64,000 bases of DNA, taken from contig JACDAE010000804.1 of NCBI GenBank assembly GCA_013695595.1, positions 2,764 through 66,763 of the forward strand, given 5' to 3'. Source of the stretch: Ktedonobacteraceae bacterium. Lineage in GTDB: Bacteria > Chloroflexota > Ktedonobacteria > Ktedonobacterales > Ktedonobacteraceae. Numbering within the stretch: the stretch's first letter is position 1; every line of letters starts with the position of its first letter. Shown here piece by piece: positions 3,355 through 60,802 of this stretch. Under the pieces are notes generated by a model. It saw nothing but the letters and a program-made list of their open reading frames with translations, had not been told where the DNA came from and ran no database searches. Made by a program: the position numbers and the translations under genes.

Positions 3355-3376
3355 AGAAAAACGCACGTTTTCGTAT
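3355..3376. promoter_or_regulatory. S-site 1 (palindromic operator-like site, AAACG-N2-CGTTT family)
   Basis: AGAAAAACGCACGTTTTCGTAT, intergenic, upstream of promoter P1. Confidence 0.6.
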
Positions 3377-3408
3377 GACGATTATATCGGGTACAGATGG
3401 TGGTTGTC

Positions 3409-3438
3409 TTGACTTTTCTAGTGATTTTCTGTTATTAT
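3409..3438 (+). promoter_or_regulatory. promoter P1 (TTGACT-18-TATTAT), member of conserved promoter cassette
   Basis: CTTGACTTTTCTAGTGATTTTCTGTTATTAT resembles P2/P3/P4. Confidence 0.55.
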
Positions 3439-3475
3439 GAACTATAATGCAATGAACAAAAAGGAGCAAGACTGC

Positions 3476-3823
3476 ATGGCGAAACAGCAGACCGATGAAC
3501 CAGTCACACTAGAGGAACAGATTGCCACGCTGCGTGAGAAAATAAAACAGAAGAAGAAATATCTGGAGGATGAGCCGCGTACCATTCAGATGAGCCACAT
3601 CGGGTGGTTCAAGCTCAGGAGAGTTGCGAAAAAGCGGCGTATTCCCATTTCTGCACTTCTAGAGATGATCTCCGATGAGCAGGGGAAGGTGTATTTGGAT
3701 GCAGACGATCTCCAGTCAGTGGAGACCGAAGCGCAGGAGATCCTGGAGCGGCGCAAAGTGCCACTTCAGGATCTAGAGGAGCAACTGGCAGCTTTAGAGC
3801 AGCAACTAGCACAAGCAGAATAA
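3476..3823 (+). CDS. hypothetical coiled-coil protein
   Basis: ORF 3437..3823; ATG 3476 preceded by AAGGAG; heptad-like charged sequence. Confidence 0.55.
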   Translation: MAKQQTDEPVTLEEQIATLREKIKQKKKYLEDEPRTIQMSHIGWFKLRRVAKKRRIPISALLEMISDEQGKVYLDADDLQSVETEAQEILERRKVPLQDLEEQLAALEQQLAQAE

Positions 3824-3828
3824 ATCTC

Positions 3829-3862
3829 TACCGAAAGCACTAATCTGGCTTTCGGTATTTTT
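3829..3862 (+). terminator. rho-independent terminator
   Basis: TACCGAAAGC...GCTTTCGGTA hairpin followed by TTTTT, directly after stop at 3823. Confidence 0.65.
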
Positions 3863-3901
3863 CTGCCTTGTTGAGCAATATTATTTAAAACAGAAAAATA
3901 C

Positions 3902-3930
3902 TTGACATTCTAGTGTAAATCTGTTAATAT
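3902..3930 (+). promoter_or_regulatory. promoter P2 (TTGACA-17-TAATAT)
   Basis: 26 nt CTTGACATTCTAGTGTAAATCTGTTA identical to 11324-11349. Confidence 0.6.
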
Positions 3931-5183: not shown

Positions 5184-5203
5184 CAATCAGGGAAAGGGTG
5201 CTT

Positions 5204-5225
5204 GTAAAAACGGACGTTTCTCTAA
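5204..5225. promoter_or_regulatory. S-site 2
   Basis: GTAAAAACGGACGTTTCTCTAA between RavA-like stop and VWA start. Confidence 0.6.
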
Positions 5226-6859: not shown

Positions 6860-6906
6860 CAATGAAGGGGGCTACTTCAGCCCTCTTCACTTTTTGCCCT
6901 CTTCGT

Positions 6907-6928
6907 TCTAAAAACGTTCGTTTCTAGA
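6907..6928. promoter_or_regulatory. S-site 3
   Basis: TCTAAAAACGTTCGTTTCTAGA, intergenic. Confidence 0.6.
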
Positions 6929-6948: not shown

Positions 6949-6977
6949 TTGACTTTCTAAGTATATTCTGCTAAATT
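6949..6977 (+). promoter_or_regulatory. promoter P4 (TTGACT-17-TAAATT)
   Basis: CTTGACTTTCTAAGTATATTCTGCTAAATT, same cassette as P1-P3; followed by shared leader GAAAGGACCACCAA. Confidence 0.5.
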
Positions 6978-9111: not shown

Positions 9112-9441
9112 ATGAACCAGGACGAAATTCGTGTCTATATCAACGCACAGAAACAGATCCTCCGAAGCCGCGCCGCCGAACGCCCGGAATTGTTTGATCT
9201 GCTCGATATCCAGTATGCCATCTGGCTTGCTATTGAGGAGGCCTTGAGCAACCCAGCGATCCCTGGGGATCTCAACCTGCTGGTTGCACGCCACGTTGCA
9301 GAAGAGTTGCTGGAGGAGTGCCATGAAGCAGGTCGCTCGGTATACCAGGACTTCCTCAAAGTAAGCCAGGTTGAGGCAGATCGTATTATGGAACACTTGT
9401 CTATAGAAAGGGGAGAAGGTAATGAAAAAGGGGTGATATAG
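9112..9441 (+). CDS. hypothetical protein
   Basis: 109-aa ORF bracketed by R1 and R2. Confidence 0.5.
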   Translation: MNQDEIRVYINAQKQILRSRAAERPELFDLLDIQYAIWLAIEEALSNPAIPGDLNLLVARHVAEELLEECHEAGRSVYQDFLKVSQVEADRIMEHLSIERGEGNEKGVI

Positions 9442-9469
9442 CTATAGGTATACCTATAGCTATATCACC
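9432..9469. repeat. R-repeat 2: 38-bp perfect palindrome
   Basis: GGTGATATAGCTATAGGTA|TACCTATAGCTATATCACC between convergent genes. Confidence 0.8.
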
Positions 9470-10400
9470 TTATCGAGGCACGGGCATCATATTTACGTTC
9501 ACACGATACACATGACGTAGAGCTGGGCGTTTCAGAAGGCAGGTGACGGTATCGTCCCAAAAATCGGTTAGTCGGGGTGGATGAAGACCAAGGAGGGTTC
9601 CTAAATCGAGCATTCCTGGTTTCAATCCAATTGAGGCCGAATTCTCTGTCTCAACAAGGATGCAGGGAACGGTATCAAGGCCGTTGGAGAGGAAATCGGC
9701 TGCTCGCGTATAGCCGTTCTGTAAATATATAACGGTCCTGATAATGAACGACTGTAAGGTCATTCGGTACTCTTAGCAAAGAGAATGACAAAAGTTGCAT
9801 TTTCAGGGGAGATGAGGCTGAGTTATACTGGAGTTGAGAGTCGATCCTTGGTGCCGTATCAGGAACGAAGTGCCAGGGCAAAACTCGAATGTTTGGATCA
9901 AGAGTGGAGATTGTAAAACCGGACTCGTCGCGGTCAATTGTTATTTCATCATCGGATACATCACGATGAGGGGGAAAGCAAAGCTCGTAGAGGCGTTCAT
10001 TATTCAGTGACTCTGGTTGCCAGGCTTCAAAATGGTCTACTCGAACAAGCGGTTGAAAGGCAAGAACCTCTTTCAGGTTTACCAATGCAATACGACAATT
10101 TCCTCCTGTTCTCGCCATCTCTTTTTCTATATAGGCATATTCTGGTCGCTCTTTGATGATTCTCACAAGCTGATTTTCATCTATCTCAGAAATTGGATTC
10201 ACTGATGTGAAAGCCGGGCGTGAGGTGACGTGCGTTTGAGCGGCACTCACGGCTTGTAAATGTTGCTCAGGTGTAGCAGAAATGAGGGATGATCGTGCCT
10301 GTATTGACCATTGTTCGTTGGTCCACCCAATAAGTACCTTGAAGGTTTCTTCTGGTACGCTTGCATTGGGCGAAGGCTCTGTTTTAGATACAGTAGTCAT
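9470..10400 (-). pseudogene. possibly frameshifted gene (ORFs 9675..10400 and 9470..9763)
   Basis: Two co-directional overlapping ORFs; frames meet at a TATATATTT run near 9720; downstream part has LQNGYTRAADFLSNGLDTVP (ParB/Srx-like DG.HR pattern, weak). Confidence 0.4.
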
Positions 10401-11324: not shown

Positions 11325-11353
11325 TTGACATTCTAGTGTAAATCTGTTATTTT
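11325..11353 (+). promoter_or_regulatory. promoter P3 (TTGACA-17-TATTTT)
   Basis: 26 nt identical to P2. Confidence 0.55.
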
Positions 11354-11360: not shown

Positions 11361-11400
11361 ACAGGTATAGGTATACCTTGACTCTACCTATACCTATAGT
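11361..11400. repeat. R-repeat 3
   Basis: ACAGGTATAGGTATACCTTGACTCTACCTATACCTATAGT. Confidence 0.7.
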
Positions 11401-11515: not shown

Positions 11516-11538
11516 TACAGAAACGAGCGTTTTTCTAT
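11516..11538. promoter_or_regulatory. S-site 4
   Basis: TACAGAAACGAGCGTTTTTCTAT. Confidence 0.6.
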
Positions 11539-11570: not shown

Positions 11571-11607
11571 ACTATAGCTATACCTAGGGTCTACCTATAG
11601 CTATAGT
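11571..11607. repeat. R-repeat 4
   Basis: ACTATAGCTATA-13 nt-TATAGCTATAGT, 12-bp perfect arms. Confidence 0.7.
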
Positions 11608-11621
11608 ATGAGGTCAGAGAG

Positions 11622-12315: not shown

Positions 12316-12350
12316 TTATAGGTATAGGTAGACTCTACCTATACCTATAG
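12316..12350. repeat. R-repeat 5
   Basis: TATAGGTATAGGTA-GACTC-TACCTATACCTATA. Confidence 0.75.
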
Positions 12351-12370: not shown

Positions 12371-12676
12371 ATGCATACCCGACTGAACACACTTGAGGGG
12401 CCGCTGCCCTTTCTACTGCGCTACATGGATGATGAATTGTGGAACAAAGAGCTAGCACGTTGCCAGGGGGTCGCCGAGGCTATTGACCCTGCCGAAGTGG
12501 AATTGTGCCGTGATGCTGGGACGCTGGCAGGAGCTAAAAGCATCCGGCGTGCATTAGAGCGGCAGGGCCACGGGTCCGTCAGAGTTTACCGACGGGTAAA
12601 CCTGCGCGATATGACGCCCAGCGATGTCACCTGGAAAAAAGTGTGGGAATGGGATGAGGACCTGGTGGATGATTAG
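12371..12676 (+). CDS. hypothetical protein
   Basis: 101-aa ORF with SD, bracketed by R5 and R6. Confidence 0.55.
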   Translation: MHTRLNTLEGPLPFLLRYMDDELWNKELARCQGVAEAIDPAEVELCRDAGTLAGAKSIRRALERQGHGSVRVYRRVNLRDMTPSDVTWKKVWEWDEDLVDD

Positions 12677-12711
12677 CTATAGGTAGAGTCTACCTATAGC
12701 TATAGTTTTTT
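12675..12711 (+). terminator. R-repeat 6, terminator-like (13-bp arms + T-run)
   Basis: AGCTATAGGTAGA-G-TCTACCTATAGCT then ATAGTTTTTT. Confidence 0.55.
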
Positions 12712-12727: not shown

Positions 12728-12750
12728 TACAAAAACATACGTTTTTATAT
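12728..12750. promoter_or_regulatory. S-site 5
   Basis: TACAAAAACATACGTTTTTATAT, 17 bp before ATG 12767. Confidence 0.55.
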
Positions 12751-14024: not shown

Positions 14025-14042
14025 GAAAAGGAGCGTACAGCT

Positions 14043-15373: not shown

Positions 15374-15730
15374 ATGGCCAGATATTTCGACGCGTACCAG
15401 TTTGCTGCCATGGTCAAGTCTAAGCGAGGGGAGCGTGGGTTACGAGAGGTTGCCTCAGAGATCGGGTCGGTTAGCATCTCGACGCTTTCACGTATTGAGA
15501 ATGAACACATTCCCGATCTTGAAACCTTCTTTTTGCTGTGTGATTGGCTTTGTCTTCCCCCACGCCTCTTTCTGAAGGATACTCAGGAGAAGGAAGAGGC
15601 TGGCAGCACCATAGAACGGATTGCCGCGCTCCTGCGTGCTGATGGCATGTTGGAGGCGTGGCGGGCTGAGGCGCTGATAGCGATGCTGGAAGCCGCCTAT
15701 CTTGCCGTTACCCCCTACAAGAAGAAATAG
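15374..15730 (+). CDS. XRE-family helix-turn-helix regulator
   Basis: LREVASEIGSVSISTLSRIENEH HTH_3 pattern; stop codon lies inside S-site 6. Confidence 0.7.
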   Translation: MARYFDAYQFAAMVKSKRGERGLREVASEIGSVSISTLSRIENEHIPDLETFFLLCDWLCLPPRLFLKDTQEKEEAGSTIERIAALLRADGMLEAWRAEALIAMLEAAYLAVTPYKKK

Positions 15731-15750
15731 AAAAACGCACGTTTTTGTAT
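15728..15750. promoter_or_regulatory. S-site 6
   Basis: TAGAAAAACGCACGTTTTTGTAT. Confidence 0.6.
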
Positions 15751-17196: not shown

Positions 17197-17219
17197 TATA
17201 GGAACGTACGTTTTTCTAT
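17197..17219. promoter_or_regulatory. S-site 7
   Basis: TATAGGAACGTACGTTTTTCTAT at convergent junction. Confidence 0.55.
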
Positions 17220-31644: not shown

Positions 31645-31668
31645 ATACAAAAACGCGCGTTTTTGTAT
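31645..31668. promoter_or_regulatory. S-site 8: perfect 24-bp palindrome
   Basis: ATACAAAAACGC|GCGTTTTTGTAT upstream of methyltransferase. Confidence 0.7.
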
Positions 31669-33525: not shown

Positions 33526-33550
33526 ATAACTACTTTTAAAAGCATACAGT

Positions 33551-33572
33551 GTAGAAACGTGCGTTTCTGTAC
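33551..33572. promoter_or_regulatory. S-site 9
   Basis: GTAGAAACGTGCGTTTCTGTAC. Confidence 0.6.
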
Positions 33573-42255: not shown

Positions 42256-42278
42256 TACAAAAACAGACGTTTCTCTAC
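42256..42278. promoter_or_regulatory. S-site 10
   Basis: TACAAAAACAGACGTTTCTCTAC, 16 bp before ATG 42294. Confidence 0.55.
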
Positions 42279-44442: not shown

Positions 44443-44496
44443 TAGCCCCTGGAAATGGCCCCCACCATTTCCAGGTACAACACACATCATATTTTC

Positions 44497-44518
44497 ACGG
44501 AAACGGCTGTTTCCACAA
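44497..44518. promoter_or_regulatory. S-site 16 (variant)
   Basis: CACGGAAACGGCTGTTTCCACA. Confidence 0.45.
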
Positions 44519-46780: not shown

Positions 46781-46802
46781 AAAGGAAACGGGCGTTTCCC
46801 AA
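46781..46802. promoter_or_regulatory. S-site 11 (variant)
   Basis: AAAGGAAACGGGCGTTTCCCAA. Confidence 0.5.
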
Positions 46803-49925: not shown

Positions 49926-49942
49926 GTGAAAGGCATGACGCA

Positions 49943-50323
49943 ATGAGCCTTGATACGCAGCTTCCTGAAGGCCATACCGGGCGATTCACTTCACCCGACC
50001 TGAAATTACGCGACTCGAAGACCATGTGGGGACCGCTACAAATCTCTATTCATTGTCATCGACAAAGCGCGGAGCTTGGCTATCAGGCCGGGGAAGAAGC
50101 GTATCAAGAGGTGGTTCGCAGATTTGGGCAGGGCACGATCAGTGCTGATACCCTGGAGCGATTTATGACCTGTTATCTCACCACGCCTAGATATCGTCCG
50201 CGCATCATCACCGAAAAGATTGTCGCAGAATGGAAGGCGCTGTTTGTCCTGGGGTGGAGCAATCAGCTGCTCCAGGATCTGACGCACAGAGATACAGACG
50301 ACCTTACTAACACGCACTTGTAG
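49943..50323 (+). CDS. hypothetical protein
   Basis: ORF 49868..50323, ATG 49943 lies after element C. Confidence 0.45.
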   Translation: MSLDTQLPEGHTGRFTSPDLKLRDSKTMWGPLQISIHCHRQSAELGYQAGEEAYQEVVRRFGQGTISADTLERFMTCYLTTPRYRPRIITEKIVAEWKALFVLGWSNQLLQDLTHRDTDDLTNTHL

Positions 50324-50441
50324 AAAAAAAGCGGCGGTCAGGACCACCAAATTTAAAAGACCTGAACCGCCCATACGGAAGACCGCTTTGTAGTAAGTAT
50401 AACACAAGGCCCTTCCGTCCAACGCATGAAAGGAAGACGCT

Positions 50442-50738
50442 ATGGATTCTTATGATCAACCTCCTACCCATCCTATGTTCGCCAGTGCCGCCATCGCAAA
50501 GCGCTACCAGGACGGTCACATCACCAGACTGGATGCTGAACTGGCTGATATCTTGCAAACCCAGCAAGAGCCGCTGAACTGCGTTGCCATCATTTGTGCT
50601 GGAGAGGTCATCCCAATTTTTGACCTGACTATCCCACAGCAGCCAACCACTATACAGGAACGCCTGGCAATCTGTCAGCACGCCGCACGAGCGCTGATCG
50701 ACATACTCGCCGCCATACTCGAACAGTGGAAACCCTGA
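50442..50738 (+). CDS. hypothetical protein
   Basis: 98-aa ORF, SD GAAAGGAAG. Confidence 0.5.
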   Translation: MDSYDQPPTHPMFASAAIAKRYQDGHITRLDAELADILQTQQEPLNCVAIICAGEVIPIFDLTIPQQPTTIQERLAICQHAARALIDILAAILEQWKP

Positions 50739-50747
50739 GCACTGCCC

Positions 50748-50770
50748 ATACAAAAACGGGCGTTTCTAGA
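50748..50770. promoter_or_regulatory. S-site 12
   Basis: ATACAAAAACGGGCGTTTCTAGA. Confidence 0.6.
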
Positions 50771-50792
50771 CATGATAGGAGCAAGATCGTCA

Positions 50793-51383
50793 ATGGCCAT
50801 ACCAGCACTCTTATTTTTGACCGAGAAGGAATGGGACGAACTCAAACGCGCCTGCAAAGAGCGGGCCGGATGGAGATGTGAATATATCTATCCAAGCGGA
50901 AAGCGCTGCACTTCCCATGAGGGGCAAACCATCTGGAGAGGTGAGTACATCGTGGTCAATGGCAAACCACAAAAGAAGATCACGATCAGGCACGTCCATG
51001 GCTGTCACACTGGCAACGATCCCGAAAACCACAACCCGATCCTGGAGTGTCGTTGCCCACGGCACCATACGGAAGTGGATCGCAAGAATGAGAAGGCGGA
51101 GAAGCCAAGCTGGTACCGACGCGGCTACCAGATCACCACGACCGACAAACTTCTGGAGGAGGTGAATGCACGCGGAGTCAGGATTGAAGAGCAGGAGGAT
51201 GGGTACCACTGGCGCATTAGCGGAAGAGAGGACGATGGGAAGTGTACCACCGCTGTTGGTGCGGTCGGCGCAGTTATTCTAGATCTCAGCTATCTCCTGG
51301 AAATCAGGGAGCGCGAGTTGCAGGCCATCTCCCTGGAACTCGCGCAACTCCGGCAGCAATCCCAGACTTTTGATGAACTATAG
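50793..51383 (+). CDS. HNH-like endonuclease
   Basis: WRCEY...RHVHGCHTGNDPENHNPILECRCPRHH; ATG 50793 follows AGGAG (alternative ATG 50772 abuts S-site). Confidence 0.5.
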   Translation: MAIPALLFLTEKEWDELKRACKERAGWRCEYIYPSGKRCTSHEGQTIWRGEYIVVNGKPQKKITIRHVHGCHTGNDPENHNPILECRCPRHHTEVDRKNEKAEKPSWYRRGYQITTTDKLLEEVNARGVRIEEQEDGYHWRISGREDDGKCTTAVGAVGAVILDLSYLLEIRERELQAISLELAQLRQQSQTFDEL

Positions 51384-51391
51384 CAATTCAC

Positions 51392-52027
51392 ATGGATCTC
51401 TTATCTATCAGGAAGGAAAACTTTATGCAAGCAGTTATAACACAAATGTCAAATCAGCTCTGCCTTTGTGGGCATATTCTCCGTAGCGAGACCGAGCGCC
51501 TGCGAGGTCGCTGCATTGAATGTGGGCTACAAGATGACATGAATGAGCACACAGTGAGCACTCTGCTCACCTATGCGAAAGAGCAGGATCATTGCCTACA
51601 ACCTATCGTGCATATGGCACGCAAAGCAATCGCCGCCGAGCGGAAAGCAATGAGTTCCTTTTATAAAGAGCGCAGCATGTGCGAGGCGGATTTCCTCGAC
51701 GCCTATGAGTTGTGTGAGGCACTCACCTGCATCGCAAACGCCCTTTCGCAATGGGCCTACGTTGCAGCGCGACTCTGGTATGCACTGGAACTGGCTGGAG
51801 AGGATCACCAGCCTTACCTGCGTACACTCCATCTCTGGAGCACACAACAGTTCTCGCGCCTGCTCTCCATTCACCTCGCCATGCAGGCCAGCATCCAGGT
51901 ATTTTGCCGGGAGCGCAGCATCTTGCTTACCTTCAGCGTTGTAGACCAGGCGCTCGACCTTTCCGCACAAACCCACGCCCGTACAAAAACGGACGTTTCT
52001 AAAAGAATAGAAGCACTGGCCTACTAA
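51392..52027 (+). CDS. hypothetical protein with zinc-ribbon-like CLCGH...CIECG
   Basis: 211-aa ORF; last codons overlap S-site 13. Confidence 0.45.
   Translation: MDLLSIRKENFMQAVITQMSNQLCLCGHILRSETERLRGRCIECGLQDDMNEHTVSTLLTYAKEQDHCLQPIVHMARKAIAAERKAMSSFYKERSMCEADFLDAYELCEALTCIANALSQWAYVAARLWYALELAGEDHQPYLRTLHLWSTQQFSRLLSIHLAMQASIQVFCRERSILLTFSVVDQALDLSAQTHARTKTDVSKRIEALAY
51981..52003. promoter_or_regulatory. S-site 13
   Basis: GTACAAAAACGGACGTTTCTAAA. Confidence 0.55.
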
Positions 52028-52134
52028 CACGCGGACAGTGCTAGAACAAACGACACTTCTTATAAGGAGGTGCCTGGAGTTGACATCGGTCAAATAACGA
52101 TCACCACTATCCTTTATAGCACGGCAATACAATA

Positions 52135-52172
52135 TCAAGATAAACCTATACGTATAGGTATAGGTTTATCTT
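52135..52172. repeat. R-repeat 11
   Basis: CAAGATAAACCTATA-8-TATAGGTTTATCTTG, 15-bp perfect arms. Confidence 0.7.
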
Positions 52173-52214
52173 GAGCGTCAAAGCTAGCGATCGAGAAAGT
52201 AGAAAGGCACAGCA

Positions 52215-52538
52215 ATGCAGACCAACGAAACAAGCACCCAGGAGCAAGCCGCCATCGCCGAACTCACTACAAAGTGGGGCTATCGCGACATTTCCGCGCT
52301 CATCGTAGCATGGAAGAAACACATGGCAGAGCAGTATCGCGAAGACGCCGATACCACCACGTACCTTTGCGTCCTCCAGACTCCAGAGGGCGGACCAGTC
52401 TACTGCCGAACGGCAAAACGGCTTTTCAGGGAGCTTGAAACGGCCCAAGCTCGCAATGAGCCACATGAGCAGTCTCCCGCCCCGGACCCTGCACAAAATA
52501 TGTGGATGGTCGTTGGCAACTTCGACATTGAGGATTAA
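52215..52538 (+). CDS. hypothetical protein
   Basis: 107-aa ORF. Confidence 0.45.
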   Translation: MQTNETSTQEQAAIAELTTKWGYRDISALIVAWKKHMAEQYREDADTTTYLCVLQTPEGGPVYCRTAKRLFRELETAQARNEPHEQSPAPDPAQNMWMVVGNFDIED

Positions 52539-52564
52539 GGTAGCACGGACCAAAGAGGCAACGT

Positions 52565-53797
52565 ATGAAATCTCTCAGCTTGTGGCAGGATCAGGAAAGC
52601 CGGAAAACCTTAGAGGAAGCCATCGAAGAAACGATCAGCGCCTTTCACAAAACCAATGCCTGGCAGTATGCCATCTGGGATATCGGATACAGCGGAGGCA
52701 AGGATAGTACGGCCCTCGTGACCTTGCTGGCTCATCTTCTAGCCTCGGGGCGACTTCCACGACCAAAGCGGATCGTGGTGCAATACGCTGATACGGGCAT
52801 GGAAGTGCCCCCACTTCAACAATCAGCACTGCACATTCTCCACCAGCTCAAACAGCAGGGCTTTGAAACGCAGGTGGTCCGTCCTGCCCTGGATGATCGG
52901 TTCTTTGTCTATATGTTCGGGCGGGGCGTCCCGCCTCCCAACAATGGTCGCATGCGTTGGTGTACCAGGATTTTGAAAGCAAAACCAATGTCAGTGGCAC
53001 TTGAGGCAGCCAGCGGTGGACTCAAGAGTCTTGTGATCACCGGAGTCCGTGACGGCGAAAGCATTGCACGCGACGAGCGAATCGTGGCTGCATGCTCGAA
53101 GGACAGCGGGGAATGCGGTCAGGGCTACCTGCACGTCAAGTACGAAAACAGTAGCGTAGCCGACGCGCTTGCGCCTATCCGTGGCTGGCGTGTCTGCCAT
53201 GTCTATGACTGGCTGAGCCTTTATGCTCCAGGCTACGGGTTTGATACCTCGACGATTGCTGAAGTGTACGGCTACAACAGTCAAAATGGACAGGATGAGC
53301 CTCTGAACGCCCGCACTGGCTGTATGGAATGCCGTCTCGTCCACGAGGATCACATGATGGAGCGCGTACTGGCACTGCCCAAATACCAGTACCTTGCACC
53401 GATCCGTTGCTTACGCATGCTCTACGAGGAGTTAACACAGGATCACATGCGTCTACAAAAAGACGGAACGCAGCGCCTCAAGGATGGTGGGATGCCTGCC
53501 AACCTCTATCGAAAAGGCCCACTGACGATGGAAGCACGGCGCTATGGCCTAGCTCAGGTGAAAGCGATCCAGGCCGAAGTCAATACGCTGGCCAGGGCAC
53601 AAGACATATCGTCGGTCAGCCTCATCAGCCCAGAGGAGGAAAACAGAATTGAGGAACTGATTGCGGCCAATACTTGGCCGCAGGGATGGACGGGGACGGA
53701 ACCGCTCGCTTCCACCTTCCAGGAGCCGGAAATACAACCAGAGGCAATCCAGCTCGACTGGGAGACCACGTTGGCAGGACAGGATATATGGGAATAA
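52565..53797 (+). CDS. DndC-like PP-loop ATP pyrophosphatase (PAPS-reductase superfamily)
   Basis: PP-loop GYSGGKDSTAL, RMRWCTRILKAKP, Cys cluster ACSKDSGECGQG...TGCMECRLV, resembles recalled DndC/SspD. Confidence 0.7.
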   Translation: MKSLSLWQDQESRKTLEEAIEETISAFHKTNAWQYAIWDIGYSGGKDSTALVTLLAHLLASGRLPRPKRIVVQYADTGMEVPPLQQSALHILHQLKQQGFETQVVRPALDDRFFVYMFGRGVPPPNNGRMRWCTRILKAKPMSVALEAASGGLKSLVITGVRDGESIARDERIVAACSKDSGECGQGYLHVKYENSSVADALAPIRGWRVCHVYDWLSLYAPGYGFDTSTIAEVYGYNSQNGQDEPLNARTGCMECRLVHEDHMMERVLALPKYQYLAPIRCLRMLYEELTQDHMRLQKDGTQRLKDGGMPANLYRKGPLTMEARRYGLAQVKAIQAEVNTLARAQDISSVSLISPEEENRIEELIAANTWPQGWTGTEPLASTFQEPEIQPEAIQLDWETTLAGQDIWE

Positions 53798-53855
53798 GAC
53801 CTTCTCACTTGGGTCCTTTTACGTGGTACTTGCTCAAATATTGAAAGGATTTTGC

Positions 53856-54107
53856 ATGATGAAGCAAAGCGACAGGAAACACTTTGAGCAGGTAGACGAG
53901 GTTTTAGCCTATGCTCGCTCGACAATCAGGCAATCGCTCAAGTCGTCGAAATGGGTGCAAAGAGGCGGATCGGCTGTCTACCTCTCCACTGGTATTTACC
54001 TGGATGAGACTGGATGGTTTGTTGCGAAGAAATTGCATTTTCGCCATAGCGACCAAACGATCCTCTACGGCACCGTTTGTCATGATGGAACATTTCTTGA
54101 GGAATAA
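53856..54107 (+). CDS. hypothetical small protein
   Basis: ATG 53856 within ORF 53661..54107. Confidence 0.4.
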   Translation: MMKQSDRKHFEQVDEVLAYARSTIRQSLKSSKWVQRGGSAVYLSTGIYLDETGWFVAKKLHFRHSDQTILYGTVCHDGTFLEE

Positions 54108-54157
54108 TGACAATTTTCAACCCTTATGTATAGTTCTCCTGATAGAAAAAGGAAGTA

Positions 54158-55642
54158 ATGATCATGTTTACTATCGATACCAAAACCGGTTTACTATGTT
54201 TCTGCATTCATGGCCATTTTTATCAACCTCCGCGCTACGATCCGTTTACGGGCCTGATCGCCAGTGAGCTGGGGGCCACACCCTTTGCTAATTATAACGA
54301 AAAAATTACTTGGGAATGCTATCAGCCGAATGCGGAAGCGGACAATTTCGCCAGTATTAGTTTTAATCTGGGACCAACACTTGCAAGCTGGCTTGAGCGT
54401 GCACATCCTGACGTGTACCAGCACATTCTTGCCTCTGAGCAGCAGCACATGCAGCGCTACGGGGTAAGTAATGCTTTGGCACAAGGATATAATCACACCA
54501 TTTTGCCCCTCGCTTCCACACGCGATAAAAGGACCCAGATCCTCTGGGGGCTACAAGACTATGAGCATCGCTACGGCCACAAGGCACATGGCATGTGGTT
54601 AGCAGAAACAGCCACCGATCTTGAGAGCCTTGATCTCATGGCCCAGGCAGGGATTACCTACACGATCCTGGCCCCCTGGCAGGCTGCCTGCGAGATTGAT
54701 CGCAGTGAGCCCTATTATGTCCATCTGCACAACGGTCGCCGCATGATAGTGTTCTTTTATAATGGCCCGACATCGGGCGGCGTTTCATTTGAGGATCACC
54801 TTACCAATGATGCCAATATGTTTGCCGCATCTGAACTACAAAAGCATCGTCAGCAGGACAAAAGTGAGCACGGCGAGCCACAGATGCTGCTGATTGCTAC
54901 GGATGGTGAGCTGTACGGCCATCACAAGCCCTATCGAGACCGTTTTCTGTCCCATCTGTTGCGTTATGGCGCTCCAAGCTATGGCTTTGAAGTCTGTACG
55001 CTAGAGCGCTACCTCCTGGCACATCCGCCTACCAGAGAAATTCAACTCCATGAACCAAGCTCCTGGAGCTGCATCCATGGGGTAGAGCGATGGCGCGTGG
55101 GGTGCTCCTGCGATGGTACACAGCGCGATGAGCAAAGGCAATGGAAGGCTCCCCTGCGTATGGCACTCAACCATCTTGCCAGTGCTTGTGATCGGCTTTT
55201 TGAGCAGTATGCTAGTGAGACGCTGCATGATCCCTGGAGCGCACGCGATGACTATCTGGCACTCCATCAGGGCTGGGAAACACCCGAACACTTCTGGAAA
55301 CGGCACAGCAAACACGGGCAGGCTCCTCGCGACATTGCCTCAATCTTACAAACAAGCCAGCTTCTTGAAGCGCAGTATTATATGCAGCAAAGCTTCACGA
55401 GCTGCGGTTTTTTCTTTGAAGATGTCGCGCGGATAGAACCACGCAATGATATTGCCTTTGCTCGTAAGGCAATCAGCTTGCTGTGGCAGGCAACCGATAT
55501 CGATCTCCAGCATGAATTTGTATGCGAGCTAGCACACGTCCAGAGCTGGCAAGCACACCTCTCCGGCGCAGACCTCTACCGAGAACTACCAGCCGTTCCG
55601 AGCACCTGGCTCCCATTATTGGAAATGAAGGACCACAAATGA
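54158..55642 (+). CDS. glycoside hydrolase family 57 / DUF3536-like protein
   Basis: HGHFYQPPR, GMWLAETA, LIATDGELYGHH (GH57 regions I, III, IV), C-terminal SCGFFFEDV. Confidence 0.7.
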   Translation: MIMFTIDTKTGLLCFCIHGHFYQPPRYDPFTGLIASELGATPFANYNEKITWECYQPNAEADNFASISFNLGPTLASWLERAHPDVYQHILASEQQHMQRYGVSNALAQGYNHTILPLASTRDKRTQILWGLQDYEHRYGHKAHGMWLAETATDLESLDLMAQAGITYTILAPWQAACEIDRSEPYYVHLHNGRRMIVFFYNGPTSGGVSFEDHLTNDANMFAASELQKHRQQDKSEHGEPQMLLIATDGELYGHHKPYRDRFLSHLLRYGAPSYGFEVCTLERYLLAHPPTREIQLHEPSSWSCIHGVERWRVGCSCDGTQRDEQRQWKAPLRMALNHLASACDRLFEQYASETLHDPWSARDDYLALHQGWETPEHFWKRHSKHGQAPRDIASILQTSQLLEAQYYMQQSFTSCGFFFEDVARIEPRNDIAFARKAISLLWQATDIDLQHEFVCELAHVQSWQAHLSGADLYRELPAVPSTWLPLLEMKDHK

Positions 55643-55661
55643 GCACAGAGATGGAAATTGA

Positions 55662-55683
55662 TAGAGAAACGGACGTTTCTGGA
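55662..55683. promoter_or_regulatory. S-site 14
   Basis: TAGAGAAACGGACGTTTCTGGA, 18 bp before ATG 55702. Confidence 0.6.
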
Positions 55684-55701
55684 AACGTGGGAGGTTATCA
55701 G

Positions 55702-56538
55702 ATGACCCATCTTACTCCCGCCAATAACACCTGGGTCGCCCGTCATGAGCAGGCCCGTTACCTCGTTTCGCTCTCGGGAGGTCTAGGCAGTGCCATTGCC
55801 GCAGAGTGGGCGATAGAGCAGTATGGAAGAGCACAAGTTGGCTTGTGGTTTGCTGATGTACAGGATGAGGATGAAGATACCTATCGGTTTTTACATGATC
55901 TGATGGCCCGCTGGGGGGGCATCCTGTACTGGTACACCGATGGGCGGCGGCCAGCAGATGTGTGGGATGAACGCAAAATCATTCCCAACAGCCTGATTGC
56001 TCCATGTACCTATATTCTCAAAATCGAGCCCTACCGCAGGTTTATTCAGGCGATGCCCATGCTGCCAATCGTGCTGATTGGTTTCAAACAGCATGAAGCC
56101 AGGAGACAACACAACTGCATCGCCTCCTATAAAGAAGCCATACCCGAGGCCGTCGTTGACTATCCGCTCCTGTGGCGACCAGAGGAAACGAGAGCGCTTA
56201 CGACCATCTGCCAGCACGAGTTGGGCATTGAACCACCGCGCGTCTATGCCCTAGGCTATGACTACAACAACTGTCTGGGGGCTGGCGGCTGTTGTCGTAG
56301 TGGCATTACCACCTGGGTCCGAACCGCCTATTACTTTCCTGAGCGCTTTGCCGCACGGGAGTCCTGGGAACAACAGGCCCGCGCTCACGGAGGACCACGA
56401 GCAAACCGTAGCTTTTGCGCACGCACGCGCAATGGCAAGAAGGAAGCGCTCACCTTAGAACAAATTCGCCTGAACTACCTTCCCAATGCACCCAAACTCT
56501 TAAAGCTGAATACACAAAAAGGAGTGGAACTCACATGA
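55702..56538 (+). CDS. PAPS-reductase-family PP-loop protein (second copy, divergent)
   Basis: VSLSGGLGSA PP-loop variant, APCTYILKIEP (C-T-x-x-L-K), Cys cluster NNCLGAGGCCRSG. Confidence 0.6.
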   Translation: MTHLTPANNTWVARHEQARYLVSLSGGLGSAIAAEWAIEQYGRAQVGLWFADVQDEDEDTYRFLHDLMARWGGILYWYTDGRRPADVWDERKIIPNSLIAPCTYILKIEPYRRFIQAMPMLPIVLIGFKQHEARRQHNCIASYKEAIPEAVVDYPLLWRPEETRALTTICQHELGIEPPRVYALGYDYNNCLGAGGCCRSGITTWVRTAYYFPERFAARESWEQQARAHGGPRANRSFCARTRNGKKEALTLEQIRLNYLPNAPKLLKLNTQKGVELT

Positions 56539-57644
56539 TTACCAATGATACGCCACATCCTGCAACGTGGCAAACCAGCAAGGGGCGACCCGTGGACTGG
56601 TATGTGAATGAGCAGGTACAGCAAGGGCACTGGCAGGAGCAGGTGATTACACCTGAACTGACCGGACTGAGCCGCTCGATCACCGTCTTTCGCACACCCA
56701 AATCCTCGGACCTAATTGCCTATGACTGGCACGGCGACAAAAAAACGTTCTGTCCCCCCATGTGGTGGGACTTGGCGATTGGCTCAGGAGCCTGCAATTT
56801 AGGCTGTCGCGGCTGCTTCTTAGTGCTTACCCACCGCATCCGGCGCGATCCCTGGCGGCATCTCTTATATTCCAATGTCGATGACTTCACGCGTGCTGCT
56901 GAGAAATGGCTGGCCGACCCAGCTCGTCGCCGACAACATACCCTTGGTATCGGCATTGATCGTAGCGATAGTCTGCTCTATGAAGGCGTAACTGGACATG
57001 TGAGAAACCTCGCGCCCTTATTCGCCTCGCCTCGCTATAACCGCGTCGGGAACAAACTCATTTTGCTGACCAAGAGCGCCAATACGCGCTATCTTGAGGA
57101 GATTGCGCCTTCGCACCGCGCACAGGTTGTCGTCTCATTCTCTTTGAACCCACAGAGCATCGCTGATTGCTGGGAAGGACTCTGGCCAGACGGTGAACGC
57201 ATTCCTCCGACTATCGCGCAACGCCTGGATGCCGCTCGACATGCCCAGGACCTGGGATTTGAGATCAGGATACGGGTAGACCCGATCCTGACTCCCCCGG
57301 GCTGGCAGGACGCCTACCAGGAGTTTTTCGCAGAGACCGCCGCACGCGGCATTCACTTTGCTTACTATACGCTGGGAACCTACCGGGAAAAAAATGTCCA
57401 ACTCCAGGCATGGATTGAGCACTGGGGCATGCAGCCGATGACCTGGCAACCTGATGCAGGCGATATGACTCAGGACGGGACACATCGGCACCTGTCCGAA
57501 GGAAAGCGCGTAGAAATTTACCGAGAAATCCGCGACAGCATTCGTGTTGCCTCTCCAGGCACAAAAATCTCTCTTTGCAAAGAGACGCATGCGGTACGAA
57601 AGCTCGTAGAATTGTGCAACGCTGACTGTAACTGCTTGCTCTAA
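56535..57644 (+). CDS. radical SAM enzyme, spore-photoproduct-lyase/DNA-photolyase-like (COG1533-type)
   Basis: CNLGCRGC = CX3CX2C; LLTKSANT...VSFSLNPQ...RIRVDPIL layout; ATGA overlap with upstream gene. Confidence 0.65.
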   Translation: MITNDTPHPATWQTSKGRPVDWYVNEQVQQGHWQEQVITPELTGLSRSITVFRTPKSSDLIAYDWHGDKKTFCPPMWWDLAIGSGACNLGCRGCFLVLTHRIRRDPWRHLLYSNVDDFTRAAEKWLADPARRRQHTLGIGIDRSDSLLYEGVTGHVRNLAPLFASPRYNRVGNKLILLTKSANTRYLEEIAPSHRAQVVVSFSLNPQSIADCWEGLWPDGERIPPTIAQRLDAARHAQDLGFEIRIRVDPILTPPGWQDAYQEFFAETAARGIHFAYYTLGTYREKNVQLQAWIEHWGMQPMTWQPDAGDMTQDGTHRHLSEGKRVEIYREIRDSIRVASPGTKISLCKETHAVRKLVELCNADCNCLL

Positions 57645-57700
57645 GCAGCGACAGACCTTGCAGCCCCATCTAGGGGGGCTGCAACCCAAGGGAGATAATA

Positions 57701-58213
57701 ATGGCAACTCTTCGCTTTATACAGGCACCAGAGCAGGCAGAAAAAGAAGAAGACAGGCAGCGCACTCAGGAGCAGAAAATATTTCTGGCGCTGCATGAAA
57801 CTAAAACCTATGCAGAAATTGCAGCCGATTTTAACCTGAGCACGAAGGCGCTCTCCAAACTGGTCACACAAAAAATTTATCCCATGGCCGGCATAAAAAC
57901 ACGTAGAGATCTTTTCCAGGAGTCTCTTCTACGCATTCCACGCTGGCACCTGGAAGCTCTCTGTAAAGAATATTGCTTCACGAAAAAAGAGCGCCTGACG
58001 TTCTTCCTCATGATCCGCAAGCCACAATTCAAGAGAGGAGAGATCGCCAGCGAATTACATAGCAGCGATGCAACGATACGTAATCACATGCATAGCATCT
58101 ATAAAAAAATGGCGATCGCCGAGACTGGTACGAAACACTGGACCATGGTTATCTTTCAGGTCTACAAGACATGGCAAACAGCACAGGAGAGGAGCACCCA
58201 TGAACGCCCCTGA
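57701..58213 (+). CDS. LuxR/GerE-type HTH regulator
   Basis: FTKKERLTFFLMIRKPQFKRGEIASELHSSDATIRNHMHSIYKKMAI. Confidence 0.6.
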   Translation: MATLRFIQAPEQAEKEEDRQRTQEQKIFLALHETKTYAEIAADFNLSTKALSKLVTQKIYPMAGIKTRRDLFQESLLRIPRWHLEALCKEYCFTKKERLTFFLMIRKPQFKRGEIASELHSSDATIRNHMHSIYKKMAIAETGTKHWTMVIFQVYKTWQTAQERSTHERP

Positions 58214-58571
58214 GCGAAATAGCACAGACTGGTCGGGCTGTGCCTCTCTCATGCTGATTGCAATGAGCCACCTGCTAGAGCAAGGAAGGCTCTCAGGACT
58301 CTTACGTGATCAACCAGGAAAGACAGGCCCAGTGGAACCATCCATCAGGCCCTCAAACTTGAACGAATGTTACAAAGGACTTGCTTTTCTAAGAACATTC
58401 TGTTATTTTGATAAGTGTATTCAGGAGTCTCACGAGGAAGCAGGCAGATACCTGCCTCCTCTGTCCAACAGCGAGCAGGAAGCCACGCGCTATCACCGTA
58501 TGAAAAAAGAGGCGGTCGCTGATCACTTCTATAGGAACAGTCGCAGATGCACCCGAAAGGAGAACATATGA
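58200..58571 (+). CDS. hypothetical protein
   Basis: ATG 58200 overlaps LuxR-like stop region. Confidence 0.4.
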   Translation: MNAPERNSTDWSGCASLMLIAMSHLLEQGRLSGLLRDQPGKTGPVEPSIRPSNLNECYKGLAFLRTFCYFDKCIQESHEEAGRYLPPLSNSEQEATRYHRMKKEAVADHFYRNSRRCTRKENI

Positions 58572-60478
58572 AGCTCTACAAACCTGTTCGCCACAAGGCA
58601 GCATCTGGACGCGGCTACGAAGGTGGAGACGCTCCACACGCGACACCGCTCGCTTCGCCTTACGAACCGGGGTATCTGTCAATCAAACAGTTCCCCGACA
58701 AGCGATTCTGGATCATAGGCATCTTTGCAACGCTTCGTGGAGCCAGTGAAGAGGTCATCGAGGAATTACGGACCGATGGTTGGGAACCATGGAGCGAACA
58801 GACAAAAGCGGTGTTCAGTTTTCTGGAGACGCATTTTGCGCAAACGCTGATTGTCGAGGAGTATGATTACGGATTTCGCTACTGGGCACGGACTCCTGCC
58901 CTGCTGTTCGCGCAACGCTATCCGGTGCTGCTAACGCATCAGACGGACGAAAAAGAGTACGCGCATCTGGTACCACCAGATATGGTCGTTGGAAGCGCTG
59001 CCCTGATCTTTGAAGGAGACTCCTACTTTCTCTATACGATAGAACAATTAGGTGAGCAAGGGCAAGATCTTTCTGTGCAAATTAAGGCAGGCATGCTGCT
59101 TTTTCCTGATGATGCTGATCCATCCGAACACGATCGCCGCCGCCAGGAAGCGGCGCGTAGAGAGGCGTGGGAACCAACGCAGCAAGCAGCCCAGCATTTG
59201 GCGAAACTGTACTGGGAACTACATCAGCAACGTACCAAGTCCTCTCCTCGTACGCACGGGTTACCTGCGCTCACCTCAGCACACCGCACCAGACTACCAC
59301 TCACCAATTCATTTCGCGGACTCGCACAAAGCTTTGGACCAGCGGTGCAACATTCCATCTGGAATCAACAATTGGAAGGCACGCTTGAATTGCTGACCCC
59401 CAATGGAACACTTTTACGAGTTGTTGGCACCAACACTGCCGAAAATGTTGCGCTCCATCGCTACGTTACCCAGATGCTCGGACCAGAGGGCCTCAAGCAC
59501 CTGATTATTCTCCTGGACGCCTACTATCTCCAAACAAAAGGAACAGATCGCAAAGCGGACGCGCGGGTCAGCCTCCGGCAACTGCTGATTCGCCTCGGCG
59601 CTGGCAGCAAGGCAGATGATCGCGAAGAACAACGCAAATTCATGCACTCGATTCTCTACCTAGCCAGCACGTATATTACCTCTGATGAGCGGCAACCACC
59701 TGAAACAAGACCACAACCCCTGGCCAGGCAGCGGCGACGCCGAAAAACGGATCGCAAAGACTATTCACCGCTTCTCATCATTGAACGTCTGAAGCCTAGC
59801 CCCGATGGCAGCATTCAGATCCCCGACGAAGTCGAGTACCATCTTGGCGCTGAATTTTTTGAAGCGCTCTTTGGCCCCCAACAACAGTTTTTCTCGCTTC
59901 CAACGGCGCTGCTGCTGCGCTATCATGCCGTGCGCGAGCAACAAGAACTCCTGCTCGCATTTTATTTGAGCAACGCACTTATTACCTCTGGAGGACGCTT
60001 CTCTGCCTCGTTTCTCACCCTGGTCTTGCAAAGTGCACTACAATCGCAGGATGAGGTTGCTCGTGGGCACGATCGTCTGCGTGATGCCCGACGTGTTCTC
60101 TTCGCACTAGAACATCTAGAGCAACAGGATTTAATCCGGCGGGAGAGTCATATAGCAATCGATACGGCCTTGACGATGGAACTGGCGACAAAAAAAGAGA
60201 TTCAGGAGATGCTGGCTCCGGCCACCTTGCAGCGCATTCAACTGGAAGTCACCTATCAACAGCAACTTCCACCAGAGAAAATACGGGCCAGCCGACGGAT
60301 CGCTCTGCAGCAGTTGCTCGATGAGCACACTCATCCACCCGTCACCTTCCTCGCGGGTCCGGTATTAGTCGATCAAATCCAGCACCATCAGCAACGCCTT
60401 CACGAACAAAAGAACACGCCCGCTCAACTCCCGCCCTCCACACCACCGAGGAAAAGGAGAAAAAAGGATGTGCTCTAA
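58568..60478 (+). CDS. hypothetical protein, possible replication initiator
   Basis: 636 aa, SD AAGGAGA; position next to iterons and primase; no motif recognised firmly. Confidence 0.5.
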   Translation: MKLYKPVRHKAASGRGYEGGDAPHATPLASPYEPGYLSIKQFPDKRFWIIGIFATLRGASEEVIEELRTDGWEPWSEQTKAVFSFLETHFAQTLIVEEYDYGFRYWARTPALLFAQRYPVLLTHQTDEKEYAHLVPPDMVVGSAALIFEGDSYFLYTIEQLGEQGQDLSVQIKAGMLLFPDDADPSEHDRRRQEAARREAWEPTQQAAQHLAKLYWELHQQRTKSSPRTHGLPALTSAHRTRLPLTNSFRGLAQSFGPAVQHSIWNQQLEGTLELLTPNGTLLRVVGTNTAENVALHRYVTQMLGPEGLKHLIILLDAYYLQTKGTDRKADARVSLRQLLIRLGAGSKADDREEQRKFMHSILYLASTYITSDERQPPETRPQPLARQRRRRKTDRKDYSPLLIIERLKPSPDGSIQIPDEVEYHLGAEFFEALFGPQQQFFSLPTALLLRYHAVREQQELLLAFYLSNALITSGGRFSASFLTLVLQSALQSQDEVARGHDRLRDARRVLFALEHLEQQDLIRRESHIAIDTALTMELATKKEIQEMLAPATLQRIQLEVTYQQQLPPEKIRASRRIALQQLLDEHTHPPVTFLAGPVLVDQIQHHQQRLHEQKNTPAQLPPSTPPRKRRKKDVL

Positions 60479-60489
60479 GGTGTCACTAA

Positions 60490-60531
60490 CCCCACTCGCG
60501 GCGGAAAACACCCCCACTCGCGGCGGAAAAC
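60490..60531 (+). repeat. tandem 20-bp direct repeat CCCCACTCGCGGCGGAAAAC x2 (22-bp period)
   Basis: 60490-60509 and 60512-60531, identical. Confidence 0.8.
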
Positions 60532-60778
60532 GAAAACGCTGAAGCGGCCTGTAGAGCGACTTCGCATTTTTGACATGCGCGAAGGTGTGCATTTGTGCGT
60601 GTTATTTTGCGTACATGGGACTAGCAGAAACACTCTTTTTACGGTACTCTGCATAGGAAAGAACATCATTGGAGGGAGAATACCGGCCACGATAGTACAG
60701 AGCACGCGCAAGAACAACTGGAGAAGAGACGTAGGTGCGTATGTCCTCTCATTCGTACCCTTCGATCTTTTGTCATCG

Positions 60779-60802
60779 TTACAAAAACGGGTGTTTTTGT
60801 AT
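60779..60802. promoter_or_regulatory. S-site 15
   Basis: TTACAAAAACGGGTGTTTTTGTAT, 45 bp before primase ATG. Confidence 0.6.

Follow-up and report, generated by a model that had tools for sequence, protein, structure and literature searches.

The DNA analysed in the present study (64,000 nucleotides of contig JACDAE010000804.1, hereafter the window) belongs to a plasmid-like element of about 84 kb from a Ktedonobacteraceae bacterium. Copies of a 22-bp palindrome, called motif 1 here, are scattered over the short gaps between its genes. We found that the motif-1 sites are real, intergenic and symmetric, that their two half-sites are independent of each other, and that both their sequence and their position are conserved across a family of related elements. 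Coordinates follow the numbering of the 64-kb window, and L-numbers designate related loci.

Results

The window was matched to contig JAITZL010000105.1 (75.7 kb) of the metagenome-assembled genome (MAG) GCA_020063765.1, annotated as Ktedonobacteraceae bacterium. A second assembly of the element, JGI Ga0643784_0000037 (83.6 kb; L175), is 99.8% identical over window positions 48547-64000 and runs 6.4 kb beyond the window end, where three more motif-1 sites were found. The partition genes are those for ParA with a 152-aa partner (a weak ribbon-helix-helix, RHH, match) and for a separate actin-like partition ATPase. Other plasmid-like genes encode an FtsK-like ATPase, a cell-wall hydrolase, a MoxR-VWA-DUF6744 module and a sigma-70 family protein, accompanied by STAND NTPases, a C5 DNA methyltransferase and several helix-turn-helix (HTH) proteins. 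No phage structural protein was seen among the scanned genes of the element. In PLSDB, no close relative was found by a nucleotide search or by a protein search with the FtsK-like protein, and a JGI metagenome search with ParA gave no useful match.

The consensus of motif 1 is TA[C/G]A[A/G]AAACG-NN-CGTTT[T/C]T[G/C]TA. Its exact core, AAACGNNCGTTT, occurs 11 times in the window against 0.02 expected, and 20 times against 1.26 expected when one mismatch is allowed. A symmetric position weight matrix (PWM) was made from 16 sites listed in a sequence-only reading of the window, and was run on the window and on base-shuffled copies of it. All sixteen copies claimed in that reading were recovered with a tolerance of 1-2 bp, and the shuffled controls gave essentially none. 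Fourteen of them are strong sites of 24-34 bits (threshold >=24 bits; about 0 in shuffles), and two, 44496 and 46781, are weak variants which differ in the outer arms (GGAAACGG..GTTTCC). One extra marginal PWM match lies at 10492. The ~84-kb element holds about 19 motif-1 sites, including the 3 just beyond the window end in L175. Site 31645-31668 is, as had been said, a 24-bp palindrome without mismatch, the 14-mer AAACGGACGTTTCT is the same at 5208, 51987 and 55667, and the TAG stop codon of the XRE gene 15374-15730 does lie within site 15728. The central dinucleotides vary among sites, 16 of the 22 positions are conserved in sequence, and outside the palindrome there is no conserved base.

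Non-coding DNA makes up 16% of the window and holds 12 of the 14 strong sites (binomial P = 2.5e-8). The intergenic bias noticed earlier was borne out by this count, but the single exception was not, as two strong sites (51982 and 60780) overlap the final codons of publicly called open reading frames (ORFs). In the same way, a position 16-30 bp before start codons had been ascribed to many sites; it applies to six (5208, 12733, 42261, 44501, 50754 and 55667, at 15-30 bp), but overall the sites lie nearer the upstream stop: the median distance in tandem gaps is about 20 bp from that stop, against about 78 bp to the next start.

A JGI metagenome scan with a tight motif pattern gave 42 loci, and the relatives described here are fragmentary loci. 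Motif 1 was present in the same gaps in the closest relative, L123, and in more distant ones. L123, with ParA at 84% identity and other proteins at 64-100%, was examined over 20.8 kb, where eight strong sites occupy the syntenic counterparts of the window gaps, with the same gene order across them. A group of loci with 52-58% GC has two to five sites each, mostly GTACAAAAACGCGCGTTTTTGTAC, and encodes MoxR, VWA, DUF6744, 128-aa and 412-aa proteins 33-57% identical to the window copies. Identities in the distant relatives were 53-57% for MoxR, 40-44% for VWA and 47-51% for DUF6744, and the sites were again found between the 128-aa, MoxR, VWA and DUF6744 genes. When two gaps were aligned over four elements, motif 1 was an invariant block between diverged flanks. 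Because position and sequence are kept in relatives, motif 1 is under selection; and since the same syntenic gaps are occupied in elements whose proteins are 40-57% identical, the sites are old and maintained, not newly spread. The three independent assemblies are collinear over the sites that they cover. Limits of the homology blocks that the window shares with L123 fall at sites (3352, 17224 and 12767, the last just past site 12728). The ParA relatives L124, L126 and L127 (70-72% identity) are without motif 1, and a motif scan of IMG/VR gave four singleton matches only. Taken together, enrichment and conservation agree with the earlier proposal of a non-random intergenic network of protein-type recognition sites across the element.

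Complementarity between the arms at variable positions was no more than chance in the 14 window sites, and 59 non-redundant family sites showed no covariation (20 Watson-Crick pairs at position +-9, where 23.5 were expected). From this lack of covariation, each half-site is recognised on its own, as TA[not A]A[A/g]AAACG. In sites oriented with transcription the base counts were mirror-symmetric, so that motif 1 has no polarity; the upstream and downstream half-sites scored 15.8 and 14.9 bits (P = 0.05), with no positional asymmetry. Independent half-sites and missing polarity together point to recognition of duplex DNA by a two-fold symmetric protein, and not to a hairpin. Folded as RNA, the bare sites were weak (-4.4 to -8.5 kcal/mol, z = -1 to -3.3), no U-tract or T-run was found after motif-1 sites, whose stems are A/U-rich, and Rfam held no family match for motif 1.

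Over the family, 27 sites lie in tandem, 8 in convergent and 8 in divergent junctions, and all gaps number 104, 32 and 34, respectively. Canonical terminators and sigma70-like promoters were not enriched in the element. The VWA/DUF6744 gap has the order stop, GC-rich hairpin with T-run, motif, promoter in four elements; a separate classical terminator thus precedes the site, and the role of terminator does not fall to motif 1 here. A TTGACA-N17 promoter follows sites of L166 and L156 at 0-13 bp. In L142, L164 and L165, parA and its partner gene lie between motif-1 sites: a weak site touches the -35 of the parA promoter (TTTACA-N17-TATGAT) in all three, and a strong site lies 4 bp past the partner gene in L165 and L164. 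Within the co-directional array of 41.5-61.4 kb, promoter-like and terminator-like sites were no commoner than in shuffles and several motif-1 sites end 15-21 bp before a start codon, and for these two reasons the latter probably lie within long transcription units. The idea that motif 1 is itself a promoter, whether read by a sigma factor of the element or otherwise, was rejected, because there is no conservation outside the palindrome, the arm spacing is too short for -35/-10 elements, and separate sigma70-like promoters adjoin several sites.

The first site, TAGAAAAACGCACGTTTTCGTA (3354..3375), lies 1 bp past an ORF stop, is conserved in L123, and ends 33 bp 5' of the -35 of a conserved promoter, TTGACT-N18-TATTAT (3409..3438, + strand), identical in L123. 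This promoter serves the gene of a 128-aa RHH-like protein (3437..3823, + strand; 115 aa by the NCBI start), the first gene of the RHH-MoxR-VWA-DUF6744 module. The site in the MoxR/VWA gap (5203..5224) is 27 bp 5' of the VWA start codon 5252, and its palindrome extends by a further 8 complementary bp per side; these arms are compensated in L123 and L166, and in part in L156. Site 6907..6928 stands between a GC-rich terminator hairpin with T-run after the VWA stop (6863..6889, + strand) and a sigma70-like promoter, TTGACT-N17-TAAATT (6949..6977, + strand), which is 20 bp downstream of the site and kept in relatives. Site 11516..11537 lies in a long non-coding region 5' of a Macro-domain gene, about 165 bp downstream of a promoter-like site (11325-11353), with palindromes of a second type (motif 2, see below) on both sides. 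The sigma70-like promoters at 3409-3438, 6949-6977 and 11325-11353 are three copies of TTGAC(T/A)-TTCTAGTG..TCTG-TTATTA/TAAATT, the first two of which are kept in L123.

Further along, site 12728..12749 heads the DUF4031-parA-RHH-XRE gene run, 17 bp 5' of the DUF4031 gene start (12767). Site 15728..15749, over the XRE stop, is about 100 bp 5' of the promoter of a 412-aa protein with a winged HTH (wHTH) and a coiled coil, and site 17197..17218 lies in a convergent gap, 24 bp past the stop of the same 412-aa gene, where the homology block common to the window and L123 stops. Two sites lie between minus-strand genes: the perfect palindrome (31646..31667), 85 bp 5' of the C5-methyltransferase gene and with a counterpart kept in L123 at 20260, and site 33550..33571, 24 bp 5' of the 118-aa ORF 33169-33525. 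In the long plus-strand array, site 42256..42277 is 7 bp past a stop and 16 bp before the start of a 110-aa gene. The weak variants CACGGAAACGGCTGTTTCCACA (44496..44517; 18.8 bits), 25 bp 5' of the cell-wall hydrolase gene, and AAAGGAAACGGGCGTTTCCCAA (46781..46802; 15.1 bits), 5' of an AAA ATPase gene, are of uncertain membership. Site 50749..50770 is about 21 bp 5' of the start of a 196-203-aa gene, site 51982..52003 is in the final 45 bp of the called 211-aa ORF 51392-52027, and site 55662..55683 is 19 bp past the stop of a GH57 gene and 18 bp before the ATG at 55702. The last site of the window, 60780..60801, is in the 3' end of a called 133-aa ORF, about 67 bp 5' of the start (60869) of a 1056-aa gene. 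Positions 60869-64000 encode the N-terminal part of this 1056-aa protein of unknown function, which runs off the window and has 62% identical homologues in the motif-positive loci L137 and L154.

Four proteins of the window had been named as candidate binders of motif 1 in the sequence-only reading. XRE 15374 is disfavoured, since the 20.8 kb of L123 that were examined contain eight sites but no homologue of it. HTH 15934, which is the 412-aa protein, is effectively excluded: it has a different operator of its own and is present in relatives without motif 1. This protein combines an excisionase/MerR-type wHTH with a diverged coiled coil, and over its first ~95 residues it hardly varies between elements in which the protein is 45% identical overall, a constancy that had made it look like a partner for the invariant motif 1. 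Near-identical domains are encoded in L171, L172 and L174, in which no motif 1 was found within 18-20 kb. In addition, an inverted repeat TTGACGGTACTGA..TCAGTACCGTCAA (the GACGGTACTGA inverted repeat, called motif 3) stands at the promoter of all seven genes for this protein, just 5' of a TATACT -10. It occupies 15755-15800 and 15840-15880 in the window and is also upstream of the homologue in L123, L156, L171, L172, L173 and L174. We assigned the 412-aa protein to motif 3 because its domain occurs in loci lacking motif 1 and a different, conserved repeat stands at its own promoter; it is probably an autoregulated KfrA-like protein. The other two named proteins, XRE 28445-28723 (28478) and LuxR-like 57701-58213, had no homologues among the fragmentary relatives. 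Further candidate DNA-binding proteins of the window are Bro-N (2040-2915) and an XRE-TPR protein (18051-19175).

A six-frame screen showed that six window proteins recur in other motif-positive loci, namely the 128-aa protein, MoxR, VWA, DUF6744, the wHTH protein and the 1056-aa protein. The 128-aa protein (RHH-128) shows an RHH-like pattern, EPRTIQMSH with two short helices after it, and ends in a long C-terminal helix, and its model gave a strand-helix-helix order with the same long C-terminal helix. Homologues were found in 4 of 4 sufficiently sampled motif-positive elements and in 0 of 6 motif-negative relatives, and its own promoter sits behind a motif-1 site. RHH-128 may be regarded as the best co-occurring candidate for the binder, as a lead and not a finding; a host-encoded binder is also possible.

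The ParA-partner RHH proteins were rejected as a shared binder, as those of one motif-1 group show no sequence relation to those of the other and, in the window and L123, the region 5' of parA is taken up by motif 2. The RHH partners of L165-type elements have no sequence relation to any window protein, and the window ParA partner goes with motif 2. Motif 2 consists of palindromes and arrays of TATAGG/CCTATA and TATAGCTATA units, usually just past stops. It was found at 9432-9469, 11366-11400, 11573-11610, 12317-12349, 12674-12702, 14004-14030, 15323-15338, 17165-17196, 31573-31596 and 52130-52173, it is conserved in L123, and it stands directly 5' of parA in both elements. By this placement, motif 2 is probably bound by the ParA partner of 152 aa (RHH-like), as for omega or ParG. 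L124, whose ParA is 72% identical, has arrays of an 8-bp unit, CCAGAAAN / NTTTCTGG, direct and inverted, 5' of parA and in many other gaps (9784-9870, 11297, 13626, 14162, 19267, 20301 and 20568); by analogy, these CCAGAAAN arrays are the counterpart of motif 2 in a different lineage.

Several further observations were made on the element and its relatives. In L175, a 540-bp non-coding gap between convergent genes (16129-16665, ~1.7-2.2 kb beyond the window end) contains the three additional motif-1 sites and 2-3 motif-3 repeats, together with GGTAGTCGCG units that form a large inverted repeat around an AT-rich core of ~100 bp, and looks like a replication origin or a transfer (clt) locus. L172, which shares the 1382-aa STAND protein of the window at 77% identity, has the palindrome TTGGCTCACGTGAGCCA twice (10977 and 13316) around a classical parA-parB (ParB_N) operon. 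The sigma-70 family proteins of the window (24740-25744; regions 2, 3 and 4) and of the motif-positive locus L137 (4269-5138; regions 2 and 4) have no mutual homology detected at E < 1e-4. The Bro-N region (window 1596-2957, L123 1-1358) is 95.6% identical in DNA and 99.7-100% in protein, and the blocks adjoining it are only 65-76% identical in DNA, a difference which indicates a recent exchange of the Bro-N module; the next homology block begins exactly at the motif-1 site 3352.

The same core was also seen, among the matches listed, within long palindromic repeat families of Oscillospiraceae/Acutalibacteraceae, Saccharibacteria and other Chloroflexota. In Oscillospiraceae SIG572 (L005, L030, L053, L055, L063, L090, L106 and L116) and in Acutalibacteraceae loci it forms GGRGCTG-TAAAAAAACGNNCGTTTTTTTA-CAGCYCC hairpins at one end of a repeated element of >100 bp (flank ..TTTTCAGGGGATAGGAAAAAAAGATGCAGAACG), between housekeeping genes and with no Rfam match; this repeat may be a miniature inverted-repeat transposable element (MITE) or a terminator-associated repeat. 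In Saccharibacteria CAYJUX01 (L006, L012, L013, L057, L060, L100 and L114) and in L088, L103 and L095, TATAAAAACG-NN-CGTTTTTATA is the centre of longer palindromes whose outer arms vary yet stay complementary. At least 8 copies occur in one Saccharibacteria MAG, and this core was found across Saccharibacteria MAGs of very different GC content. No protein of these other-phylum loci is in common with the window. By our estimate a palindrome match needs just ~17 bits, so the cross-phylum matches are probably coincidence, and a universal cross-phylum hairpin motif was rejected for these two reasons.

Discussion

In the present study, we lean towards the explanation that motif 1 is an operator network across the element, with a role in transcriptional control or insulation. 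A two-fold symmetric protein, dimeric or tetrameric, would recognise the motif in a sequence-specific manner, and it would act as a global regulator, most likely as a repressor. Bound at sites just 5' of a -35 or touching it, the protein would control initiation. Bound within operons, just past stops and between convergent genes, it would be a roadblock or an insulator separating neighbouring modules. RHH-128 is a candidate for this protein, as may be a host factor.

There are several points which do not favour an operator network. The junction types at the sites mirror the background, so there is no specific attraction to promoters. An outward sigma70-like promoter was found within 40 bp at 13 of 63 sites against 3.6% of random positions, an enrichment which is overstated, as the control consisted of random and not intergenic positions. 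The site centres are placed heterogeneously relative to promoters, at roughly -45, -67, -80 and beyond -130 by our estimates. As for RHH-128, its predicted DNA-facing residues differ among relatives (T-Q-S vs N-L-S) and the motif barely changes, Foldseek on its model did not confirm the RHH fold, and its co-occurrence with motif 1 rests on few elements because the relatives are fragmentary. Finally, at least 6 extra perfectly complementary bp flank 8 of 62 family sites (~13%), and a duplex operator needs none.

The sequence-only reading had compared the sites with the stoperators of cluster A mycobacteriophages. In L5, Bxb1 and TipsytheTRex the operator/stoperators number >20 copies, located in promoters and, within operons, in the short gaps between genes (PMC9283540). 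Each is an asymmetric 13-bp site that binds a repressor monomer and follows the direction of transcription, and the bound repressor is proposed to stop initiation and elongation (PMC9283540). The likeness is in the many copies in short intergenic gaps, including gaps inside operons (12 of 14 strong sites non-coding, several 15-27 bp before starts). However, motif 1 is a 22-24-bp palindrome lacking the asymmetry and orientation of stoperators, its gap types are in background proportions, and it is carried by a plasmid-like element in which phage structural genes were not found, so that the stoperator interpretation is not supported in its original form.

A second comparison is with KorB-OB (and KorA-OA) of the IncP-1 plasmid RK2, where a short palindromic operator is repeated round the plasmid and the network controls the replication, partition and transfer operons (PMC11790492). 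The element studied here likewise repeats one palindromic site, promoter-proximal and distal (~19 sites in ~84 kb). In RK2 there are 12 OB sites, located beside promoters, tens of bp upstream of them or far from any promoter. KorB, however, is a ParB-family CTPase clamp, and no ParB_N was found among the window ORFs scanned; motif 1 is 22 bp long and unrelated in sequence to the 13-bp OB core; the host belongs to the Chloroflexota; and the RHH-like ParA partner of the element apparently uses motif 2. The logic of motif 1 is closest to KorB/OB and to cluster A stoperators, and it is a member of neither family.

RHH repressors of the P22 Mnt/Arc type have a C-terminal oligomerisation helix and two-fold operators of roughly 21 bp. 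If RHH-128 binds motif 1, one would expect a tetramer of two RHH dimers on a two-fold site of 21-22 bp with half-sites of ~11 bp. The difference is that Arc and Mnt control one or two promoters and motif 1 has ~19 sites element-wide, and the RHH fold of the 128-aa protein is deduced from its sequence pattern and the order of its predicted secondary structure.

An unlikely alternative to the operator network is that motif 1 works as an RNA hairpin or a DNA cruciform, serving as a 3'-end, processing or stability signal or as an unconventional bidirectional terminator, with the 22-mer at the stem apex. A hairpin function had been offered as a second option in the sequence-only reading; missing covariation and weak folds disfavour it for the 22-bp core, and the ~13% of sites with extended, compensated arms are where it finds support. 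The site in the MoxR/VWA gap is extended in the window, L123, L166 and partly L156. Its arm sequences differ between elements, and comparison of the window with L123 shows a compensatory G-C to A-T double change. All three sites beyond the window have extended arms, two of them at 2 and ~12 bp past stop codons. For extended sites the folding energy was between -15 and -34 kcal/mol (z = -4 to -8.7). Because the extended arms are compensated, the hairpin or cruciform potential itself seems to be kept at some positions, with the motif at the apex. The usual place of the sites shortly after upstream stop codons, which is shared by the palindromes of motif 2, also fits a hairpin. On the other hand, the conservation of 16 of 22 positions is more than structure alone requires, the core shows no compensation among 59 sites, and the majority of sites are bare, fold weakly and have no U-tract after them. 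Unlike intrinsic terminators, motif 1 has A/U-rich stems without a following T-run, and in the VWA/DUF6744 gap of four elements a classical terminator precedes it. Some sites, moreover, lie in divergent gaps or touch a -35. A hairpin, terminator or processing function is supported only for the extended subset.

We gave a similarly low probability to centromere-like or DNA-organising sites, dispersed in the manner of parS, sopC or OB, at which a partition or condensation protein would load or be anchored and any transcriptional effect would be secondary. The plasmid-like element has two partition systems (ParA with its RHH-like partner, and the actin-like ATPase), the par gene run has sites on both sides in the window, L123, L142, L164 and L165, and L172 shows the same layout with its two parS-like palindromes flanking parAB. 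The grouping of three sites in an origin-like non-coding region and the neutrality of junction types would also suit an architectural role. However, Pfam scans of ~60 ORFs of the window and L175, which covered a part of the small ORFs, found no ParB_N or HTH_ParB. The window ParA partner fits motif 2 better, given the place of motif 2 directly 5' of parA in the window and L123, and the two motif-1 groups have ParA partners with no sequence relation to each other, so neither is a shared binder. Type Ib centromere repeats of the ParG/omega type form an array upstream of parA; motif 1, in difference, consists of isolated single palindromes, and the arrays 5' of parA are those of motif 2 (window and L123) or of CCAGAAAN units (L124).

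Still somewhat less probable, in our judgement, is that the 22-mer is the core of a sequence-specific, orientation-independent gene-boundary element. A protein, possibly an RHH tetramer, would bind it, sometimes with the 22-mer presented on an extruded hairpin or cruciform, and transcription would be stopped both ways between almost every module of this Ktedonobacteria plasmid family. Insulation or termination would thus be bidirectional, and the sites would be seams for module exchange. If true, this would be a factor-dependent terminator/insulator defined by DNA sequence, a mechanism not established in bacteria.

It is most improbable that the sites are crossovers of a Hin/Gin/Mpi-type serine recombinase or hot spots of module exchange leading to mosaicism. 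The half-site (T)ACAAAAACG with its 2-bp centre presumably resembles the hix half-sites (TTATCAAAAACC-AA-...), and we take the hix/gix likeness to lie in inverted half-sites, an A-tract by the 2-bp centre and a nearly shared half-site CAAAAAC(C/G). We also assume a resemblance to the Bacteroides fragilis Mpi consensus ARACGTWCGT, for which a text search of the literature found nothing. The homology blocks starting or ending at sites and a Hin homologue encoded in one motif-positive locus, L151, would fit such a role. However, tblastn and phmmer with approximate Hin and gamma-delta resolvase queries found no recombinase in the window, the extra 6.4 kb or 29 of the 30 positive loci (208 kb), and the invertase gene of L151 is 9.7 kb from the single site of that locus, beside repeats unlike motif 1. 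Unlike hix and gix, the sites do not form inverted pairs around an invertible segment, and no rearrangements were seen: the three assemblies are collinear and gene order across sites is kept between relatives. The heterogeneous central dinucleotides would, furthermore, block most pairwise exchanges. The L151 gene itself (1955-2536) encodes a Hin-family serine invertase, 48% identical to Hin with the approximate query, and an inverted repeat, CGAAAGAAA..TTTCTTTCG, is nearby.

Selfish or neutral dispersed palindromes without function for the element, like MITEs or repetitive extragenic palindromic (REP) sequences, are about as improbable: the motif is multi-copy, extragenic and palindromic, a subset lies inside longer palindromes, and the core recurs in the repeat families of unrelated phyla noted above, but the sites keep the same syntenic gaps in diverged elements, show no target-site signature and no clear empty site, are accompanied by no RAYT-type gene that was seen (no dedicated search was made), and at ~17 bits some cross-phylum coincidences are expected. 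Compensated changes of the kind that maintain the stem-loops of REP and bacterial interspersed mosaic elements (BIME) are absent from the core and present in the extended arms of the ~13% described.

Conclusion

Ktedonobacteria are mycelial, actinomycete-like Chloroflexota, and a full-text literature search gave no work on how their mobile elements are regulated. The present study describes a family of plasmid-like elements defined by one deeply conserved 22-bp predicted operator between most gene modules, and it proposes two further pairings of motif and protein, the TATAGG-unit arrays at parA and the GACGGTACTGA repeat at the wHTH-coiled-coil promoter. With few candidates and one sharply defined site, the search for the binder is well-posed. 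If a global regulator does bind motif 1, the logic of one protein and many sites, familiar from IncP plasmids and cluster A mycobacteriophages, would reach a new phylum by way of a different, symmetric site, and the cis element, together with the set of promoters, may be of use for genetic tools in Ktedonobacteria.

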